A stretch of DNA of 64,000 bases from an uncultured Granulosicoccus sp. (GCA_947492525.1 CANLNQ010000002.1:235538-299537); one strand, 5' to 3'. Shown: positions 24,724 through 33,403, numbered from the stretch's first letter. Notes: generated by a model from the letters alone, not told the origin. Made by a program: numbers and translations.

Positions 24724-25398
24724 CTATTCATCCCCGGCCACCCCGTATGACGGTGCTGCCCGCGGATCCAGCGCACGCGTGACATAGTCATCGGCCTGCG
24801 GTTTGTAGACTTCCCAGGCGCGGGCAATGGCGCTGATCGGGCAGTCTTCTGTCCAGTCACAACGCAGCTCTGCATAGGGCCAATCCTGTTCATTGACAAT
24901 CAACAGACCGGCAGAGTGCACGGGGCCTGCTTCACCACCGGCTGCAAGACCTGCCTGCATGGACAGTACAAGGCGATCACCCAGCGATCCGCGGGCATTC
25001 TGGAAGGCGTCCGTGATGGCTGCAGGCACGGTGTCATTGGCCAACAGATTGCCACCCGACGCGCAGTCGATGCCGCTTGCCGAGGTCCAGATGCCCAATG
25101 CCTTGTCGCCTGAATGAATGGCTGTTCTGCCTGCCGAATCGATCACCAACAACTGTCGGTACTCCGGGTAGTCCTCCTCGGCGATGGTGGCCGCCAGAGC
25201 ATCAGCGGCGGGAGATCCTGCGGCGAGTCGCGACAGCGCTGCGGGGCCGAGGGCCGGATTGGTGACGTTCTGCGTGGCAACCGCGCCGACACCGGATCGG
25301 GCAAAGGCGCAGCGCGCAGCCACGGCGGGTGATGAGGAGGCGATGGCCACACCGAACTGCTTTGTCTCGGCGCAGTGCGCCACAATCGAGAATGTCAT
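24724..25398 (-). CDS. DUF1028-family protein
   Basis: MTFSIVA...FGVAIASS...GVGAVATQ...RQL...GNLLAN...SAGL...LRCDW...PI. Confidence 0.88.
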   Translation of the reverse strand: MTFSIVAHCAETKQFGVAIASSSPAVAARCAFARSGVGAVATQNVTNPALGPAALSRLAAGSPAADALAATIAEEDYPEYRQLLVIDSAGRTAIHSGDKALGIWTSASGIDCASGGNLLANDTVPAAITDAFQNARGSLGDRLVLSMQAGLAAGGEAGPVHSAGLLIVNEQDWPYAELRCDWTEDCPISAIARAWEVYKPQADDYVTRALDPRAAPSYGVAGDE

Positions 25399-25407
25399 GC
25401 GGCGTTC

Positions 25408-25821
25408 TCAGTCGGGAATCACGAAGGTGGCATCGATTTCGACCAGCCAGTCCGGTCGTGCCAGAGCCGATACGCAAAGACCTGTCGATACCGGGTGAAT
25501 GTCCTTGATGTATTCACCCATCGTGCGGTAGATCGCTTCTCGATGACGCACGTCGGTGATGTACACGACCACCTTGCACAGGTGTGCCATCTCGCCGCCG
25601 GCCTCCTGGATCAGCTGCTGGATGTTCTGCATGACCTTGTGTGTCTGCTCGACAGGATCGTGGCTATCGATGTTGACGGCCGTGTCCAGATCCTGCGGGC
25701 ATTGTCCTCGCAGGAACACGGTTGCGCCGCGAGCGACCACGGCCTGACACAGATCGTTGTCCAGTTTCTGTTCGGGGTAGGTGTCGGCGGTATTGAACTT
25801 GCGAATGCGTGTGTGGGTCAT
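25408..25821 (-). CDS. RidA/YjgF/UK114 family protein
   Basis: MTHTRIRKFNT...VFLRGQ...EQTHKVMQNI...KVVVYITD...PVSTGLCVSALARPDWLVEIDA. Confidence 0.9.
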   Translation of the reverse strand: MTHTRIRKFNTADTYPEQKLDNDLCQAVVARGATVFLRGQCPQDLDTAVNIDSHDPVEQTHKVMQNIQQLIQEAGGEMAHLCKVVVYITDVRHREAIYRTMGEYIKDIHPVSTGLCVSALARPDWLVEIDATFVIPD

Positions 25822-25822
25822 C

Positions 25823-27106
25823 TCATTGTCCTGTCGCAGCTGTATCAAGGCGTTTGGCGCTGCCCTGGTAGGCCAGATAGCCTTCCTGTTTCCTGATGTG
25901 ATCGACGACGAAGCCGGCATCATGCCAGACGCCCCAGATGAATGAGGATCCGCGGCGCGACTGCCAGGGCAGGCCCAGGAAATACACGCCCGGTTCGCTC
26001 GATACACCCCGCTTGTGACTCGGGCGGCCATCGTCAGTCAGCGCAGCATCCACCTTGAGCCAGCTGTAGTCAACACCAAAGCCGGTAGCCCATATGAGGG
26101 TCTTGATGCCCGCGGCCTGCAGGTCGAGCTCCCTTACGGGGTCAGTCATGCAAGCCGGGTCGGCTCCCAGCACGCGGGCCTGCGGGTCCTCTGGCAGGTC
26201 CAGACCATTGCGTTCGACATACGCATCCGCCAGGTCGAGGGTGGCCAGATAATTCGCGTCACCCTGGCGAATGTTATCCGCCAGATTGTCGGAGAAGGTC
26301 AGGATGCCATCAGTGAAACTCTCGGTCAGGCCCAGTAGCGTCATGCCCTGATTGGCAATGTCTCGAAAATCGATGGTGTAGCCGCCATCTGCGCCGGTGA
26401 CTGCAATGGTGGTGTGGGTGGATTGTTCCGAGGCTTCCGCATCCCACAGATTCAGGACACCAAGCCACCAGCAGAAGTCGCGCCCGCGATAGCGCCTGGG
26501 TGGGCGGTCATGCGAACCGACGGACAGGAAGGTCTTGCGCCCGGACTGCATGATCTCCGTGGCAATCTGTACCCCCGATGAGCCTGCGCCGACCACCAGT
26601 ACGTTGCCGTCCGGCAAGTCCTGAGGGTTGCGATATCCCGTCGAGTGCATCTGCGTCAGTCCGTTGCGTTCGGGGACAATGGGCGGTATCAGCGGGTGTT
26701 GAAAGGCACCGGTGGCACAGATGACATAACGAGCTTCGATCTGGCCGGCTGAGGTTTGCGCGATGAATCCTGCACCCTTCTCCCTGCGACGGACCTCGGT
26801 GACCGCGACACCTTCGCGGACAGGGGCGTCGAGCTTCGTTGCATAATCAACGAAGTAGTCGGCCACCTGCTCCTTGGGGACAAAGGCGTCGTCATCGAAG
26901 CCGGCAAACGTCATGCCCGGGAAGCGGTCATGCCAGGCCGGGCCATTGGCCACCAATGAATCCCAACGCTCGGATCGCCAACGCTCTGCAATGCGCGCAC
27001 GCTCCAGTACAAGATGTGAGATGCCTGCCTTGCCCAGATGCTCGCTGGCGGCGATGCCGGCCTGTCCTGCACCGATCACCAGCACATCGATGTGTTCTAC
27101 TGACAT
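25823..27106 (-). CDS. Flavin-containing monooxygenase-like NAD(P)/FAD oxidoreductase
   Basis: VIGAGQAG (FAD), QMHSTGYRNP, VVGAGSSG (NAD(P)H), LIWATGF. Start MSVEHID. Confidence 0.9.
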   Translation of the reverse strand: MSVEHIDVLVIGAGQAGIAASEHLGKAGISHLVLERARIAERWRSERWDSLVANGPAWHDRFPGMTFAGFDDDAFVPKEQVADYFVDYATKLDAPVREGVAVTEVRRREKGAGFIAQTSAGQIEARYVICATGAFQHPLIPPIVPERNGLTQMHSTGYRNPQDLPDGNVLVVGAGSSGVQIATEIMQSGRKTFLSVGSHDRPPRRYRGRDFCWWLGVLNLWDAEASEQSTHTTIAVTGADGGYTIDFRDIANQGMTLLGLTESFTDGILTFSDNLADNIRQGDANYLATLDLADAYVERNGLDLPEDPQARVLGADPACMTDPVRELDLQAAGIKTLIWATGFGVDYSWLKVDAALTDDGRPSHKRGVSSEPGVYFLGLPWQSRRGSSFIWGVWHDAGFVVDHIRKQEGYLAYQGSAKRLDTAATGQ

Positions 27107-27146
27107 GATTGCTCCACGGCTACGTGTTTCCTGGCGAATGGCTGGG

Positions 27147-28511
27147 TCAAAGCCTGCCTTGCACGTCGGAAATGCTCTCGCGCAATATATCGGAAGTCTC
27201 GTCAATCTGCGCTTCGGTCATGATCAGGGTAGGCGAGAGAATCAGACTGTTGCCCAGCGGTCGAGCGATAAGGCCGCGTTTCTGCGCAGCCTGAGCAACC
27301 TTCTGACCGATCTCGTCGCTGGCGGCAAACGGTGTCTTGCGCACCTTGTCCTTGACGAATTCCAGGCCCATCATGAAGTGGCTGCCGCGTACCTCGCCGA
27401 CCAGCTCCAGCTCTCCCAGAGCGCGCATGTTGTTCTCGAAGCGTTTCCCGGTGGTTCTGACACGCTCGGGAATCTTCTCGCTTTCCATCAGGGCAATGTT
27501 GGCCAGTGCGGCTGCCGAGGCCACCGGGTGACCGGAGTAGGTCATGCCATGAAAGAACATCGCACCTTCTTCGGAGATGACTTCATGAATCTCGTCGCTG
27601 ATGATGGTGGCTGCCAGAGGCTGATAGCCGGAAGTCAGCCCCTTGGCGGTGGTGATGATGTCCGGTTGCATGCCGAAGACATCCTTCGATGCGAAGTAAT
27701 GACCCAGACGGCCGAAGGCGGTGACGACCTCATCGGCTATGTACTTGATGTCGTATTGGCGACACAGCTCGCTCATTCGGGCGTGATAGCCCTCGGGTGC
27801 GACGATGACGCCGCCGGCTCCCATGATCGGTTCGGCAATGAAGCAGGCGATGTTCTCGGCGCCCAGTTGCTCGATTCGTGTTCGGGCATCCTCCAGCAAG
27901 GCATCGAGAAATTCTGCTTCGCTCATGCCATCTCCTTCGCGCCAGTAATGGGGCAGGCGCAGGTGATGCACCAGGCCGGGCACGGTATCCCAGCCCTCGG
28001 AGTAGGCTGGTGTGGTCATGGTCATGGCCAGATAGGTTGACCCGTGGTAGGCACCGTGACGACTGAGAATCAACTTCTTGTTGGGCTTGCCCAGGCGGTT
28101 GTAGTAGTGATGCAGGATACGAATGGCGGTATCGTTTGCCACAGAACCCGAGTTGCCGAAGTGCACGGTATTCAGATTCCCGGGCGCCAGATCGGCGATC
28201 TTGCTGGCCAGTGCGGCGGCTGTGGGGTGGGCGAAATTGTAGAAGGTCGAGTAGAAGTCCAGCGTGTTCAGCTGCTCGGTAATGGCATCGATGATCTCCT
28301 TGCGCTTGTGCCCGACGTTGACACACCAAAGACCCCCGATGCCATCGATCAGCCGGTTGCCTTCGCTGTCGGTCACGTGTGCACCTTCGGCGCTGACAAT
28401 GACGGTACGGGAGTTCTCCTGTTTCAGTGCGTGCAGGTTGGCAAACGACTGTACGAGGTGGGTGTCCGCGGTGAGGACGCCATCGGTGGTGGTATCAATA
28501 GCGAGAGACAT
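27147..28511 (-). CDS. Class III (omega-amine) aminotransferase
   Basis: IDGIGGLWCVNVGH, AYHGST, FIAEPIMGAGG, IADEVVTAFGRLG, TTAKGLTSGY, HGMTYSGHP. Confidence 0.93.
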   Translation of the reverse strand: MSLAIDTTTDGVLTADTHLVQSFANLHALKQENSRTVIVSAEGAHVTDSEGNRLIDGIGGLWCVNVGHKRKEIIDAITEQLNTLDFYSTFYNFAHPTAAALASKIADLAPGNLNTVHFGNSGSVANDTAIRILHHYYNRLGKPNKKLILSRHGAYHGSTYLAMTMTTPAYSEGWDTVPGLVHHLRLPHYWREGDGMSEAEFLDALLEDARTRIEQLGAENIACFIAEPIMGAGGVIVAPEGYHARMSELCRQYDIKYIADEVVTAFGRLGHYFASKDVFGMQPDIITTAKGLTSGYQPLAATIISDEIHEVISEEGAMFFHGMTYSGHPVASAAALANIALMESEKIPERVRTTGKRFENNMRALGELELVGEVRGSHFMMGLEFVKDKVRKTPFAASDEIGQKVAQAAQKRGLIARPLGNSLILSPTLIMTEAQIDETSDILRESISDVQGRL

Positions 28512-28632
28512 TGTCTGAAGACCTTGGGTTGTATCCGGATTGGGGGCTTTGCTCTTCGAGCAAGTGGGCAGTTTGCAACCGGGGACGCTGGCGCGAGAAA
28601 GAACGCAAGGCGGCCCCGGTTCGGTTCTGAAC

Positions 28633-29670
28633 CTACTTTTTCACGTTGGTCCAGATCTGGTCATAGACCGCCTGAGTCTGCTCATCGCAGACATCGATGA
28701 ACACGGCAGGGCCTGCCGACGCGGGCGGGTTGCCTTCGGGCAGTGTGCGCAGTGCATCGTCGAGCAGATCGGACACACCGTCAACCCCTGCGGCGTAGCG
28801 GGCAAAGATGGTCACGGCCGCCGCGTTTTCCGGCTCCAGCAGAAAGTCCATGAACGCCAGCGCGTTATCGCGATTGGGGGCATCCTTGAGCAGCACGACG
28901 TTATCCATCCAGGCGATATAGCCCTGAGTCGGGAAGGCATACTCGATGTTTGCCCCCTCTTCACGACCCTTGGCCGAGAAGCCACTGTAGATCATGCCAG
29001 CCAGCGCATCGCCGGACACCAGCACCTCCTTGGCCGTGTCGGAATTGAACGATGCCCAGTGCCCCTTGGCCTCTTCCAGCATGGCGTTCAGCGCTTTGAG
29101 TTTGTCCCGATCGGTGGAGCATTGTTCGATGCCCAGGTGCAGCGCGGCCAGAGCCATGACCTCACCCTGACTGTCGAGGACGTTGATCTTGCCGGACAGT
29201 TCCGTCGGTGGATCGAAGAGAATGTCGGTTGTATTGATCTCGCCCTGGTATTCATCGCGGTTGACCGAGAAGGACGTGGAGCCCCACTGATAGGGAATGG
29301 AGTGCTGCCGGCCTGGATCGAAGCCGACGTCGAGCCATTGTGGTTGTATGTTGCCTTTGTTGCTCAGCTCACCTTCGGCAATGGTATCGAGCAGGCCTTC
29401 ATTGGCCATGATCTTGACCATGTAATCACCGGGTACCGACACATCGTAGGTGCCGATTCCGCCGGCCTTCAATGATGCAAGCATGGACTCGTTGGAATCG
29501 AAGGTGTCCATGACCACGTCGATGCCGGTCTCGGCGGTGAACTTCTCGATGAGTTCCTGTGGCATGTATTCGAACCAGTGATAGACAACCACTTTGCCAT
29601 CGGCCATGGCCGGTGTGCCGGCAAGTGCGATCAGCGAGGCCGCTGCCATCGGAAGAAGGTGCTTTTTCAT
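28633..29670 (-). CDS. Polyamine-type ABC substrate-binding protein (PotD/PotF family)
   Basis: VVYHWFEYM...FTAETGI...FDSNESM...YDVSVPGDYMV...SIPYQWG...WMDN. Confidence 0.92.
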   Translation of the reverse strand: MKKHLLPMAAASLIALAGTPAMADGKVVVYHWFEYMPQELIEKFTAETGIDVVMDTFDSNESMLASLKAGGIGTYDVSVPGDYMVKIMANEGLLDTIAEGELSNKGNIQPQWLDVGFDPGRQHSIPYQWGSTSFSVNRDEYQGEINTTDILFDPPTELSGKINVLDSQGEVMALAALHLGIEQCSTDRDKLKALNAMLEEAKGHWASFNSDTAKEVLVSGDALAGMIYSGFSAKGREEGANIEYAFPTQGYIAWMDNVVLLKDAPNRDNALAFMDFLLEPENAAAVTIFARYAAGVDGVSDLLDDALRTLPEGNPPASAGPAVFIDVCDEQTQAVYDQIWTNVKK

Positions 29671-29688
29671 GTCTTGACTCCAGTTGTC

Positions 29689-30504
29689 TCAGTTGGTCTT
29701 GTCGGTTTTACTGACGAAGTAGGAAATCGTGACCATCACCACCGAGACACTCAGGAGCAGGGTGGAGATGGCCATGATGTTGGGCTTGATGCCTTGTTTT
29801 ACCGCCCCGAAGATAGCGGTGGGCAAGGTCTCCACGCCGGCGCCCTTGACGAAATTCGTGATGATGAAGTCGTCCAGGGAGACGATGAAGGCGAGCAGGA
29901 ATCCGGAGATGATGCCAGGCGCCATCAAGGGCAGAAGGATTCTGGTAAAGGCCTGCCTGCGAGTGGCGTACAGGTCCAGTGCTGCCTGTTCGAAACTGTC
30001 ATCGATACCCTGCATGCGAGCGGCAATGGGCAGATAGGCAAAGGGAATGCAGAAGGCGATATGCGCCAGCACGATGGTCATCAAACCTCGGTCAAATCCG
30101 ATGGCATTGAAGAAGATCAGGGTGGCTACCGCCGTGACGATCTCGGGCACCATCAGGGGCAGGGAGATCAGTCCGGCAGACAGCATGCGCAACCTGAATT
30201 TCCCGGCGCGTATCATGCCGGTTGCGGCCAGCGTCGCAATTGCCGTTGAGACGCTCGCAGCCACGATGGCGATGACAAAGCTGTTCCAGGCCGCCAGTTT
30301 GAACTTCGCGCTTTCCGGACCGGTAAAGACATCGACATACCAGCGCAGTGAAAAGCCTTCCCACGCTGCTATCGAGTTCGATGAATTGAAACTGTAGATC
30401 GTGACGACCAGCAGCGGGGCGTAGAGTATGCACAGGCAGAGCAGGGTGATGGCCCTGAACCCGGTATAGGTGCGCACATCGAGTCTTGCGGAAACGTCAG
30501 CCAT
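29689..30504 (-). CDS. Polyamine-type ABC permease (PotC/PotI family)
   Basis: LYAPL...SFN...GFSLRWY; EQAALDLYA; [11 protein letters not shown]. Confidence 0.92.
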
Positions 30505-30509
30505 TCCGG

Positions 30510-31439
30510 TCAGGCCTCCTTGCGTTCGTGGCGGGTTTGCTGGCGCGCAAACAGCAGCAGAATGATCAGCACGATGGTCAGCAGAATCATGGACGCCGCG
30601 GCACCGAAGGGCCAGTTACCGGCATTGCCCTTGAACTGCTCCTCGATCAGTGAGCCGATCATGTAGTTCTTCGCCCCACCGAGCAGATCGGGCGCCAGAA
30701 AGGAGCCCAGGGAAGGGACAAAGACCAGAATGCAACCGGCGATGATGCCCGGTTTGACTGCCGGTAGCAGTACTCTGCGCAGCGTCACCCATCGGGAGGC
30801 ATAGAGATCCGCTGCCGCTTCACTCAGGGAAAAATCATAGCGCTCCACCGCCGCATAGATGGGCAACACCATGAACGGCAGGTAGGAATAGAACAGCCCC
30901 AACTGAACGGCGAAATTGGTGTTCACCATATGCAGGGGGCTGTCGATGAGGCCCAGAGACATCAGCACCTGGTTCAGAGGCCCCTGGTCACGCAGCAGGA
31001 ACTTCATGGACACGGTACGAATCAGCAGGTTGACCCAGTAGGGAATCGTGATGAGAAACACCCAGATTGCCCGGGATCCGGCCGGGCGCGTGGCAATGAA
31101 ATACGCCGTGGGGAAACCGATGGCAAGACTCAGCAAGGTGGCGGTACCGGCCTGCCAGAACGAGCGCCAGAAGATCGTGATGTATGTCCACTCGATGCTC
31201 GGCGGCTCATCGCCGAAGAGACCTCGATCGAAGAAGAACTGGTCGTAGGCTGCGAGGCTGAATTCCCAGATGACGCCGCCGCGGAATTCCTTGGTCAGAA
31301 AGGAATAGACCAGCATCATGATCACTGGAATCAGCGACAGACCGAGAAGCACCAGCCAGGAGGGGAGAAGCAGCCAGGTGCGGGCTTTCTCGTAAGTATT
31401 TGCGACGGTACTGCCGCCGCCAGGTGCGCCGGCCGCCAT
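30510..31439 (-). CDS. Polyamine-type ABC permease (PotB/PotH family)
   Basis: [35 protein letters not shown]. Confidence 0.92.
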
Positions 31440-32527
31440 CAGTCGATCAGGAGCCTTGCGGCTCCCGGCTCCATATTGACGTACACATCGCTACCGGGCT
31501 CGAAGATGCCCTTGCTGCCTCGATCCGAATTGGATGTGCGTACGGTGAAGGTCGGACCATCCGTCAGATTGACGATGGTGGTGATGTCGGTGCCGATGAA
31601 GATGTTTTCGCTCACCTTGCCTTGCAGGCTCTTGCTTTCGCGCGGCTTGTCGCTGATGAAGACGCGTTCGGGTCGCAACGACAGGTGAACGCTGGAACCC
31701 ACGCCGATTCCAGCCACTTCATTGCAGTGCAGTTCATGGCCCCCGTCCAGCTGGCAGATGGCATTGCCATCCCGGATCTCCTTGACCACGACAGTGAGCA
31801 GATTGGTCTCGCCGATGAAATCGGCAACGAATACATTGCGTGGTGATTCGTAGATTTCACGCGGTGTACCGAGCTGCTGCAGTTCACCGGCTGACATCAC
31901 GGCGATGCGGTCGGACATGGTCAGGGCTTCCTCCTGATCGTGCGTGACGAAGATGAAGGTGATGCCGGTCTCGCGCTGCAGGTGCTTCAGTTCGAGTTGC
32001 ATCGCTTTGCGCAGTTTCAGATCCAGGGCTGACAGCGGTTCGTCCAGCAGCAGCACCTTGGGTTGCGGGGCAAGCGCACGTGCCAGAGCCACCCGTTGCT
32101 GTTGTCCGCCCGACAGTTGCGACGGCTTGCGTGCGGAGAAGTCCGAAAGCTGAACTAGTTCGAGCATCTGCCTGGCCTTGCTGCGGGCTTCGCTCTGGCT
32201 GGCCCCTTTCATTTCCACACCGAATGCCACGTTGTCCAGAACGTTCAGATGTGGAAACAGTGCGTAACTCTGAAAGACCGTGTTCACCGGCCGCTGGTTC
32301 GGCGGCAGGTTCTCGATCTCCTGCCCATACAGGTGGATCGACCCATGGCTGACATCCTCGAAGCCGGCGATCATGCGCAGCAGCGTGGTCTTGCCGCAGC
32401 CCGAAGGGCCCAGCAGCGTGAAGAACTCGTTGTCCTTGATGGACAGGGATACTTCCTTCAGCGCCGTGAAAGAGCCATAACGCTTGACCGCGTTTCGAAC
32501 ATCGATCGCATTGTCTTGTCTTGCCAT
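31439..32527 (-). CDS. Polyamine-type ABC ATP-binding protein (PotA/PotG family)
   Basis: GPSGCGKT, VFQSYALFPH, LSGGQQQR, LLLDEPLSALD, FVADFIG. Confidence 0.94.
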   Translation of the reverse strand: MARQDNAIDVRNAVKRYGSFTALKEVSLSIKDNEFFTLLGPSGCGKTTLLRMIAGFEDVSHGSIHLYGQEIENLPPNQRPVNTVFQSYALFPHLNVLDNVAFGVEMKGASQSEARSKARQMLELVQLSDFSARKPSQLSGGQQQRVALARALAPQPKVLLLDEPLSALDLKLRKAMQLELKHLQRETGITFIFVTHDQEEALTMSDRIAVMSAGELQQLGTPREIYESPRNVFVADFIGETNLLTVVVKEIRDGNAICQLDGGHELHCNEVAGIGVGSSVHLSLRPERVFISDKPRESKSLQGKVSENIFIGTDITTIVNLTDGPTFTVRTSNSDRGSKGIFEPGSDVYVNMEPGAARLLID

Positions 32528-32540
32528 GCGCGTTCTCGGT

Positions 32541-32610
32541 ATACCCCTTGAAGTGCTTGTGTTTATACTAGAACCATTGATTCAGGGGGTATATACCCCT
32601 AAGGGGGTAT
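32541..32610. promoter_or_regulatory. Overlapping TACCCC/GGGGTA palindromes, candidate LuxR-type operator
   Basis: GGGGTATATACCCC (32586-32599) overlaps TACCCCTAAGGGGGTA (32594-32609); a further ATACCCC half-site lies at 32541-32547. Confidence 0.6.
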
Positions 32611-32611
32611 C

Positions 32612-33403
32612 TTGTTCACGTTGACCAATGCAACCCAGGAGCACCTGGCGGCCGCTATCGAAGCGCTCGGTACGTCAGCGTTCCCGGAGAAGCTGTACGC
32701 CTGGCTGTGTCGGTGCATGGAGATCGACAATGTGACCATTCTGGCCTACTACCAGACCATCAAGCCGGATGTATTCTTCTTTCATTCCCGGGTCAGACAG
32801 GTGCACGAGCGCATGGAAGCGGATTACCTGTCGGGAATCTATCTGCTGGATCCGTTTCACGAACTGCATGTCAACAAGTCCGAACGGGGTCTCTATCGCC
32901 TGCGCGACTGTGCTCCCGACAGCTTCCATCGCAACGAGTATTACGCAAAATACTATGCCGGCACCACCATGCTGGATGAGGCCTGTTTCCACGTTTCTCT
33001 GCCCAAGGGAGTGTCAGTACAAGTGTGCCTGGGGCGGGACAAGAGCTCGGGAAGTTCCTTTTCTGCCCGTGACCTGAATACCGCTCGAAAGCTGAGCAGT
33101 ATCGTCTGCAGTCTCATTGCCGTGCATTGGAAGGACTTGAAGGCCAGCGGTGACTATACGGATGAGACCCTGCTGACCCACATTCAGTCGCAGCTGATGG
33201 AGCACCGAGGGGTTCGCCTGAGCAGGCGCCAATGCGAAGTGGCACTGTTGATTCTGAGGGGACACAGTACGATTTCGATTGGCCTCTGCCTGGAAATCAG
33301 CCCGCAAACGGTCAAGGTGTTTCGCAAGCAGCTGTACCGGAAATGCGAGATTTCCTCGCAGGCCGAGCTGTTCTCACTGATGACAACGTATCTGAGTCTG
33401 TAG
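32612..33403 (+). CDS. LuxR-type HTH regulator with N-terminal sensor domain
   Basis: C-terminal LSRRQCEVALLILRGHSTISIGLCLEISPQTVKVFRKQLYRKC; divergent from the ABC operon. Confidence 0.88.
   Translation: MFTLTNATQEHLAAAIEALGTSAFPEKLYAWLCRCMEIDNVTILAYYQTIKPDVFFFHSRVRQVHERMEADYLSGIYLLDPFHELHVNKSERGLYRLRDCAPDSFHRNEYYAKYYAGTTMLDEACFHVSLPKGVSVQVCLGRDKSSGSSFSARDLNTARKLSSIVCSLIAVHWKDLKASGDYTDETLLTHIQSQLMEHRGVRLSRRQCEVALLILRGHSTISIGLCLEISPQTVKVFRKQLYRKCEISSQAELFSLMTTYLSL

Follow-up and report, generated by a model that had tools for sequence, protein, structure and literature searches.

A 64,000-nucleotide stretch of DNA from an uncultured Granulosicoccus sp. (GCA_947492525.1, CANLNQ010000002.1:235538-299537), called the window below, carries at positions 24724-33403 eight co-oriented genes and a divergent LuxR-type regulator gene that probably form a Hin-type operon for the catabolism of histamine through imidazole-4-acetate. 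This assignment is based on gene content, on the orthology of three of the encoded proteins to those of the hinF, hinL and hinH positions of Pseudomonas, on context statistics, on predicted folds and on operator conservation. The pathway itself is not new, the operon being a variant of the known Pseudomonas Hin route of histamine breakdown. What is new here are the ATP-binding cassette (ABC) importer, a non-orthologous aminotransferase, a LuxR solo with its operator, the loss of hinD and hinG, and a probable transfer between bacterial classes.

In Pseudomonas putida U and Pseudomonas aeruginosa, the aminotransferase HinC, the aldehyde dehydrogenase (ALDH) HinD and the proteins HinF, HinL, HinH and HinG degrade histamine to aspartate by way of imidazole-4-acetate, to which the LysR regulator HinK responds; hinFLHG correspond to PA5393-PA5390 and hinK-hinDAC to PA0218-PA0221 (PMC8231116). 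HinF is an FAD monooxygenase (EC 1.14.13.5) and HinL an enamine deaminase; HinH and HinG are both amidases, the latter of EC 3.5.1.8 (PMC6467879). A literature search for PA5390-PA5393 turned them up in a review table only, and another on DUF1028 found nothing relevant.

The link to these genes comes from a gammaproteobacterial locus of Pseudomonas type (L089, 65% GC), which was found by a phylum-wide genome search followed by retrieval of the region. Its LysR protein matches P. aeruginosa HinK (PDB 6M5F; PMC11495319) with 590 bits and ~88% identity. On one side of the LysR gene lie an ALDH, an APC permease, a class-III aminotransferase and a binding protein, in the published hinDAC/PA0222 order, and on the other side a flavoprotein monooxygenase (FMO), a RidA protein, a DUF1028 protein and an M20 amidohydrolase, in the order of hinFLHG. 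Because of this gene order around a HinK-like LysR, hinF, hinL, hinH and hinG can be equated with FMO, RidA, DUF1028 and M20, respectively. The FMO of the window is 62% identical over 424 aa to the hinF-position protein of L089 (E = 0), its RidA protein 54% over 136 aa to the hinL-position protein (E 4e-56), and its DUF1028 protein 54% over all 224 residues to the hinH-position protein (E 7e-74). Judged by these alignments, the three proteins are orthologous to HinF, HinL and HinH.

An earlier note on this DNA had considered the operon an orphan, of unassigned substrate and route, and had named an orthologue search ending in an already characterised pathway as the result that would speak against this. 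Such a search led to the Hin pathway, so the orphan claim fails on the note's own terms. The logic of the route that it had proposed (uptake of an amine, transamination, flavin-dependent oxygenation, action of RidA on an imine or enamine, and a DUF1028 hydrolase with an N-terminal Thr) survives; the unassigned substrate and route do not.

The window and the Pseudomonas system have the FMO-RidA-DUF1028 order and a class-III aminotransferase, which in the window would provide the entry step as it does in Pseudomonas, and their end products are presumably the same (formylaspartate, then aspartate). However, the window encodes an ABC importer where Pseudomonas has the APC permease HinA, its regulator is a LuxR solo and not the LysR protein HinK, hinD and hinG are missing in cis, and its genes lie in one operon whereas those of Pseudomonas are found in two to four clusters. 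A nitrile-type cluster of the MSMEG_0569 kind was also considered and rejected, the FMO reaching 350 bits against a cut-off of 498 and the partner genes being absent. A plasmid search did not find a named Pseudomonas cluster, and a search of the ESM Atlas returned DUF1028 clusters only.

Layout of the operon and its gene products

Genes were called in the window by means of an open reading frame (ORF) listing and of Pfam and NCBIfam scans, and both bear out the eight tightly spaced minus-strand genes and the divergent LuxR-type gene described before. The features are the following:

31439-32527, minus strand, ABC importer ATPase, PotA-like, with a TOBE domain (Pfam ABC_tran and TOBE_2)
30510-31439, minus strand, ABC permease, PotB-like (BPD_transp_1)
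29689-30504, minus strand, ABC permease, PotC-like (BPD_transp_1)
28633-29670, minus strand, periplasmic binding protein of the PotD/PotF family, proposed histamine binder (SBP_bac_8)
27147-28511, minus strand, class-III (omega) aminotransferase, proposed histamine:2-oxoacid aminotransferase in the HinC role (Aminotran_3)
25823-27106, minus strand, HinF-like FMO, imidazoleacetate 4-monooxygenase (EC 1.14.13.5) by orthology (Pyr_redox_3)
25408-25821, minus strand, HinL-like RidA-family protein (Ribonuc_L-PSP)
24724-25398, minus strand, HinH-like DUF1028 hydrolase of the N-terminal nucleophile (Ntn) type (PF06267, 217 bits)
32612-33403, plus strand, LuxR-solo regulator with a VqsR-like ligand-binding domain and a GerE helix-turn-helix (HTH) domain (GerE, residues 203-255)
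32538-32611, no strand, conserved operator/promoter region with three elements (DNA sequence and conservation across loci)

From the ATPase gene to the DUF1028 gene, the intergenic gaps are -1, 5, 18, 121, 40, 1 and 9 nt. On reading the DNA, the start of the FMO gene was set at the ATG at 27106, which has GGAG in front of it; a longer ORF beginning with TTG would overlap the aminotransferase gene. The RidA boundaries were likewise set to 25408-25821, placing the start 1 nt past the FMO stop. The genes that flank the operon are unrelated to it, with an ABC exporter upstream and, downstream, a convergent 2Fe-2S ferredoxin gene and an SBP56/SELENBP1 gene. In a shuffle comparison, terminator-like matches were not above expectation, and the promoter scan did not find a sigma-70 consensus. 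The eight-gene layout with its divergent LuxR gene recurs in seven loci (L001, L003, L004, L007, L036, L046 and L064) and in many marine metagenome contigs, so that the arrangement is not a matter of chance; the eight-gene feature is real and widely conserved.

In Ntn hydrolases of the proteasome-beta type, the nucleophile (Thr) is the first mature residue and opens the first strand of an alpha-beta-beta-alpha sandwich. The DUF1028 protein begins, as had been pointed out, with M-T-F-S. Residue T2 does not vary among 32 homologues (46-75% identity), and the distant paralogue 2IMH/SPO2555 has it as well. In the structural model (pLDDT 95.6), the first strand begins at residue 2 and the fold is of the proteasome-beta/Anbu Ntn type; in a Foldseek search the model matched 2IMH at TM 0.84, followed by Anbu and 20S beta subunits at E ~4e-5. 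The invariant T2, the position of the first strand and these fold matches together support the suggestion of an exposed N-terminal Thr, and the protein is predicted from fold and conservation to be an N-terminal-Thr Ntn-type hydrolase.

Members of the Rid family share the Ribonuc_L-PSP fold and need an active-site Arg for imine hydrolysis. The RidA protein of the operon matches PF01042 above the cut-off (66.6 bits) and TIGR00004 below it (55 bits against 106), and the Arg of its C-terminal ALARPD stretch looks, as judged by eye, equivalent to the catalytic one. The FMO has two dinucleotide-binding sites, and a signal peptide is seen in the translation of the binding protein.

Genomic context, substrate and importer

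A scan of species-representative genomes yielded 80 loci around DUF1028 orthologues of 60-75% identity, onto which a panel of proteins was mapped. FMO, RidA and DUF1028 form the core of these loci, the FMO being present in 72 and RidA in 77, where it adjoins DUF1028. This trio is accompanied by a HinK-like LysR in 56/80 loci, by an M20 amidohydrolase in 46/80, by a HinD-like ALDH in 25/80, and in 27/80 by a 697-aa flavoprotein related to old yellow enzyme and trimethylamine dehydrogenase (OYE/TMADH type) that corresponds to histamine dehydrogenase. For instance, the 697-aa protein of L011 gives 1320 bits with the histamine dehydrogenase 6DE6, 853 with 3K30 and 514 with trimethylamine dehydrogenase, while the best solved relative of the L062 LysR is HinK (6M5F; 174 bits vs 78 for the next family). 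An aminotransferase of the window type occurs in 11/80 loci. One of the two enzymes, aminotransferase or histamine dehydrogenase, is present in 38 of the 80 loci and both together in none. Moreover, in operons that are otherwise alike they occupy the same slot between the genes for the binding protein and the FMO, which holds histamine dehydrogenase in L027, L052, L146 and L181 and the aminotransferase in the window, L001 and L036. Since the trio travels with HinK-like LysR, M20, ALDH and histamine dehydrogenase, and since the aminotransferase shares the slot of the dehydrogenase, histamine is the likely imported substrate.

These neighbours (LysR, M20 "peptidase", ALDH and flavoprotein) also fit superficially the descriptions of HomR, HomC, HomD and HomA, so that an operon of the homABCDER type for homarine, trigonelline or similar N-heterocyclic betaines might be thought of (PMC13236597). 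However, HomA and HomB are described as a TgnAB-like pair of flavin supplier and oxygen activator (PMC13236597), which does not fit an FMO and a RidA protein, and the HomB profile gives E-values down to 1e-240, which are impossible for a RidA protein of 137 aa. As the flavoprotein of 697 aa has been identified as histamine dehydrogenase and the LysR resembles HinK, this explanation has next to no probability.

The importer is linked to histamine enzymes as well. Window-type ABC importers (permease identity of at least 65%) occur in 19/80 loci, of which 11 also carry histamine dehydrogenase; in loci with the dehydrogenase, the ATPase orthologues are 73-81% identical and those of the binding protein 71-82%. 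Comparison with alphaproteobacterial histamine-dehydrogenase clusters (PDB 6DE6 and 3K30 type; e.g., L048, L057 and L060) indicates that trio and importer are orthologous in both, the transporter with 73-83% identity. Those clusters, in contrast, use a dehydrogenase of the TMADH family and possess a HinK-like LysR, an ALDH and an M20, whereas the window has a transaminase, a LuxR solo and neither ALDH nor M20.

The label of a polyamine-type ABC system given in the earlier note holds as a family resemblance but not beyond it. The importer has the four-component architecture and the protein families of Escherichia coli PotABCD and PotFGHI. Its ATPase passes the potA subfamily model TIGR01187 (386 vs 355.6 bits), but all four equivalog cut-offs are missed: PotA by the ATPase (420 vs 482 bits), PotB by the permease at 30510-31439 (237 vs 348), PotC by the permease at 29689-30504 (207 vs 326) and PotD by the binding protein (189 vs 582). 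Its genomic linkage is to histamine and not to polyamine enzymes.

This resemblance gives rise to another explanation, in which a Pot-like importer and a SpuC-like transaminase would act on putrescine, spermidine, cadaverine or another aliphatic amine, and the trio on a cyclic imine (pyrroline or piperideine). The best NCBIfam matches of the transporter are indeed PotA-D, the best PDB relatives of the binding protein are PotD/PotF-type proteins, and most PotD amine-contact positions appear to be kept in it, although this reading of the alignment by eye is not decisive. Against a polyamine operon stand, besides the missed cut-offs, the orthology of the trio to hinFLH, the linkage of the same importer to a true histamine dehydrogenase in the 11 loci mentioned, and the finding that aminobutyraldehyde dehydrogenase or gamma-glutamyl genes lie beside the trio in 0/80 loci surveyed. 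The absence of gamma-glutamylation and aldehyde dehydrogenase genes from the operon, which had been noticed before, is confirmed, and none is present elsewhere in the window either. A role in polyamine breakdown is therefore considered improbable.

Several observations weigh against the assignment to histamine. The importer belongs to a polyamine family. The aminotransferase is 36% identical to the HinC-position protein of L089, no closer to it than other class-III paralogues, and among PDB structures it is nearest to putrescine and polyamine:pyruvate transaminases. The same-genus locus L119 holds aminotransferase and histamine dehydrogenase together, so that their mutual exclusion is not absolute. 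In the literature consulted, genetics and annotation are the basis for the biochemical roles given to HinL and HinH. No HinD orthologue is found in the window or in the 6.66-Mb genome, whose best ALDH is 38-43% identical as compared with 61-80% among cluster-linked orthologues, and no deformylase is encoded in cis, the sole M20 candidate being at C33:33992-35155. Given 36% identity, the role of the aminotransferase rests on context, and we propose, by analogy of position, that it fills the HinC role as a non-orthologous enzyme.

In the histamine pathway thus proposed, the PotABCD-like ABC system would import histamine, and the class-III aminotransferase, with a 2-oxoacid as the presumed amino acceptor, would convert it into imidazole-4-acetaldehyde. 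An aldehyde dehydrogenase encoded elsewhere would yield imidazole-4-acetate, whose ring would be hydroxylated to imidazolone-acetate by the HinF-like NAD(P)H/FAD monooxygenase. Ring opening and deimination to N-formyl-L-aspartate, with release of ammonia, would then be shared in some way between the RidA-like HinL and the DUF1028 protein HinH. Finally, aspartate and formate would be set free by an M20 deformylase whose gene lies elsewhere, with a candidate on contig C33.

The 80-locus survey and related searches also revealed other versions of the module. In most aminotransferase-type operons, a carbon-nitrogen hydrolase of the nitrilase superfamily is encoded between the binding-protein and aminotransferase genes (L004:6135-6905; same slot in L001, L003, L007, L064, L121 and L126-L133); the window, L036 and L120 lack it. 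An alpha-only Rieske oxygenase, as one or two genes between or beside FMO and RidA-DUF1028, is found in 21/80 loci, among them L047, L061, L074-L076, L079, L037 and L044 (e.g., L075:7309-8475), mostly without aminotransferase or histamine dehydrogenase; this version is perhaps a variant directed at an imidazole compound with an N-methyl group or another modification. The rhizobial and agrobacterial version (L006, L008, L016-L019, L022, L023, L025, L035 and L062), located partly on plasmids, one of them a pTi contig, combines a HinK-like LysR and FMO-RidA-DUF1028 with a GH3 glycosidase, an M20 and a different ABC importer, and could act on a glycosylated imidazole compound. In several gammaproteobacterial loci (L096-L098, L115, L116 and L118), the place of the single-component FMO upstream of RidA-DUF1028 is taken by a two-component oxygenase of the HpaB type. 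A RidA-DUF1028-ArgE-like module that lacks the monooxygenase is carried by 105 Klebsiella plasmid records, its DUF1028 protein being 53% identical to that of the window; in K. pneumoniae plasmid pUUH239.2 (L082; NC_016966.1, 93386-95672) it lies beside a vapBC pair and IS903B, followed by genes for a quinone oxidoreductase, a glutathione S-transferase and a dehydroquinase.

The divergent LuxR solo and its predicted operator

A GerE HTH forms the C-terminal part of the regulator, whose N-terminal domain has no Pfam match, Autoind_bind included. The best fold match of its model (pLDDT 83.6) is VqsR's ligand-binding domain (5XHX; TM 0.82 on target, rmsd ~3 A, 26% identity), followed by those of QscR, SdiA, RhlR and TraR. 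VqsR is an orphan LuxR-type protein of P. aeruginosa, and the two proteins have in common the C-terminal GerE HTH and the lack of a cognate N-acyl-homoserine lactone (AHL) synthase nearby. In contrast to VqsR, the regulator of the window is tied to a catabolic operon and has its own GC-rich palindrome of 16 bp. Its orthologues diverge from the same ABC genes in 10 loci, and no paralogue is found in the 6.66-Mb genome.

The gap between the regulator and ABC genes measures 84 bp and contains three elements. The palindrome GGGGGTATATACCCC, which is perfect, lies at 32585-32599. It is adjoined by the element GGGGGTAT (32603-32610), which abuts the LuxR start codon, and the distal element GGTATACCCC (32538-32547) is located ~45 nt away, 11 nt before the ATPase start. 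A perfect operator match occurs once in the window, where 0.27 would be expected at up to 2 mismatches. The genome of 6.66 Mb holds no second full site, near matches on C5 and C8 having no LuxR paralogue alongside. The three-element layout is kept in 8 loci (L001, L003, L004, L007, L036, L046, L052 and L064) whose regulators are 40-68% identical. A palindrome beside a -35-like hexamer would fit activation of the LuxR type, and the divergent LuxR solo probably controls the operon through the predicted GGGGGTATATACCCCC operator, responding to histamine or a pathway intermediate.

The nearest relative of the operon, in L120 (marine metagenome, 51% GC; 79-93% identity across all eight genes), has neither a LuxR gene nor the GGGGTATATACCCC operator. 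An M20 gene (L120:1622-2803) diverges in place of the LuxR gene, and an IclR gene lies downstream (L120:10764-11549). The eight-gene core therefore moves between regulatory contexts.

Missing steps, origin and significance

In sister loci with the aminotransferase, an ALDH and/or an M20 gene directly follows DUF1028, so that a full Hin enzyme set is present in one operon. The ALDH of these loci is 74-79% identical to that of dehydrogenase-type loci, a protein that in turn shares 61% identity with the one in the HinD position. In the window, neither genes nor remnants of ALDH, M20 or the carbon-nitrogen hydrolase were found, and the pathway consequently needs enzymes acting in trans or stops at formylaspartate. 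The genome encodes 14 aldehyde dehydrogenases, lacks histamine dehydrogenase, and its best LysR protein is 34% identical to HinK-like proteins. The M20 candidate on C33 shares 47% identity with the HinG-position protein of L089 and 55% with the M20 beside the L120 operon; its surroundings (C33:29582-35155, L083:2583-8156) comprise genes for a methyl-accepting chemotaxis protein of 766 aa and for a SnoaL-FMO fusion, and then pel-type polysaccharide genes.

The host is a gammaproteobacterium, as the genomes placed in its class include those of Pseudomonas type, and the best protein hit with a name is from Granulosicoccus sp. 3-233 (79%). The evolutionary position of the operon was estimated with a single quick tree of concatenated FMO, RidA and DUF1028 (809 columns, FastTree LG+gamma, rooted on the Pseudomonas-type clade). 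The window is nested in it among Rhodobacterales loci with aminotransferase and LuxR genes, apart from the same-genus loci, whose DUF1028 copies are 46-66% identical to that of the window. Horizontal acquisition is the simplest reading of this topology, and a transfer of the operon from roseobacters into the gammaproteobacterium is probable. One genome assigned to the same genus carries its locus (L109, G415:C27) with 70% GC on a 4.5-Mb contig, against 45-57% GC in the other members; it shows 7% contamination and the bin may be mixed.

Such a history leaves room for an incomplete, recently transferred module that either harvests nitrogen only (as alanine through transamination and as ammonia through deimination), formylaspartate being excreted, or is in decay, a view that overlaps with that of a Hin-type histamine operon. 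The window lacks the orthologues of hinD and hinG that stand after DUF1028 in sister loci, and its DUF1028 stop lies 19 nt from the convergent ferredoxin gene; the tree separates the window from its same-genus loci, and the nearest relative L120 is also devoid of ALDH and has a different regulator (IclR). However, all eight reading frames and the regulator gene are intact, each operon gene is single-copy in the genome, the operator is fully conserved, and the 14 aldehyde dehydrogenases and the one HinG-like M20 could act in trans. The hin genes of P. putida are also scattered, over four regions (PMC8231116). Incompleteness is thus unlikely to be the better description of the operon, though not as improbable as a polyamine function, and even a pathway that stops at formylaspartate would give two of the three nitrogens of histamine.

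A combined proposal goes further and is put forward tentatively, since we lean somewhat against it as a whole: the VqsR-type LuxR solo would sense histamine or imidazole-4-acetate and not an AHL, the PotD-like protein would be a dedicated histamine binder, and together they would form a transferable, cross-class marine module, used by this host in truncated form and mainly for stripping nitrogen from histamine.

DUF1028 is still listed as a domain of unknown function in Pfam, and NCBIfam has no model for DUF1028 or HinF, which is why the whole module goes under hypothetical labels in hundreds of genomes from sea and soil. The link to histamine provides a testable annotation for a widespread gene set, which was seen in roseobacters and rhizobia, in many contigs from marine metagenomes and in one gammaproteobacterial genus, probably Granulosicoccus. 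The variant described here offers three experimental handles: a candidate histamine-specific ABC binding protein, a proposed histamine transaminase that is not related to HinC, and a LuxR solo whose predicted operator is sharply delimited and whose ligand is probably not an AHL. The same link points to histamine as a source of nitrogen and carbon that is traded in the sea.

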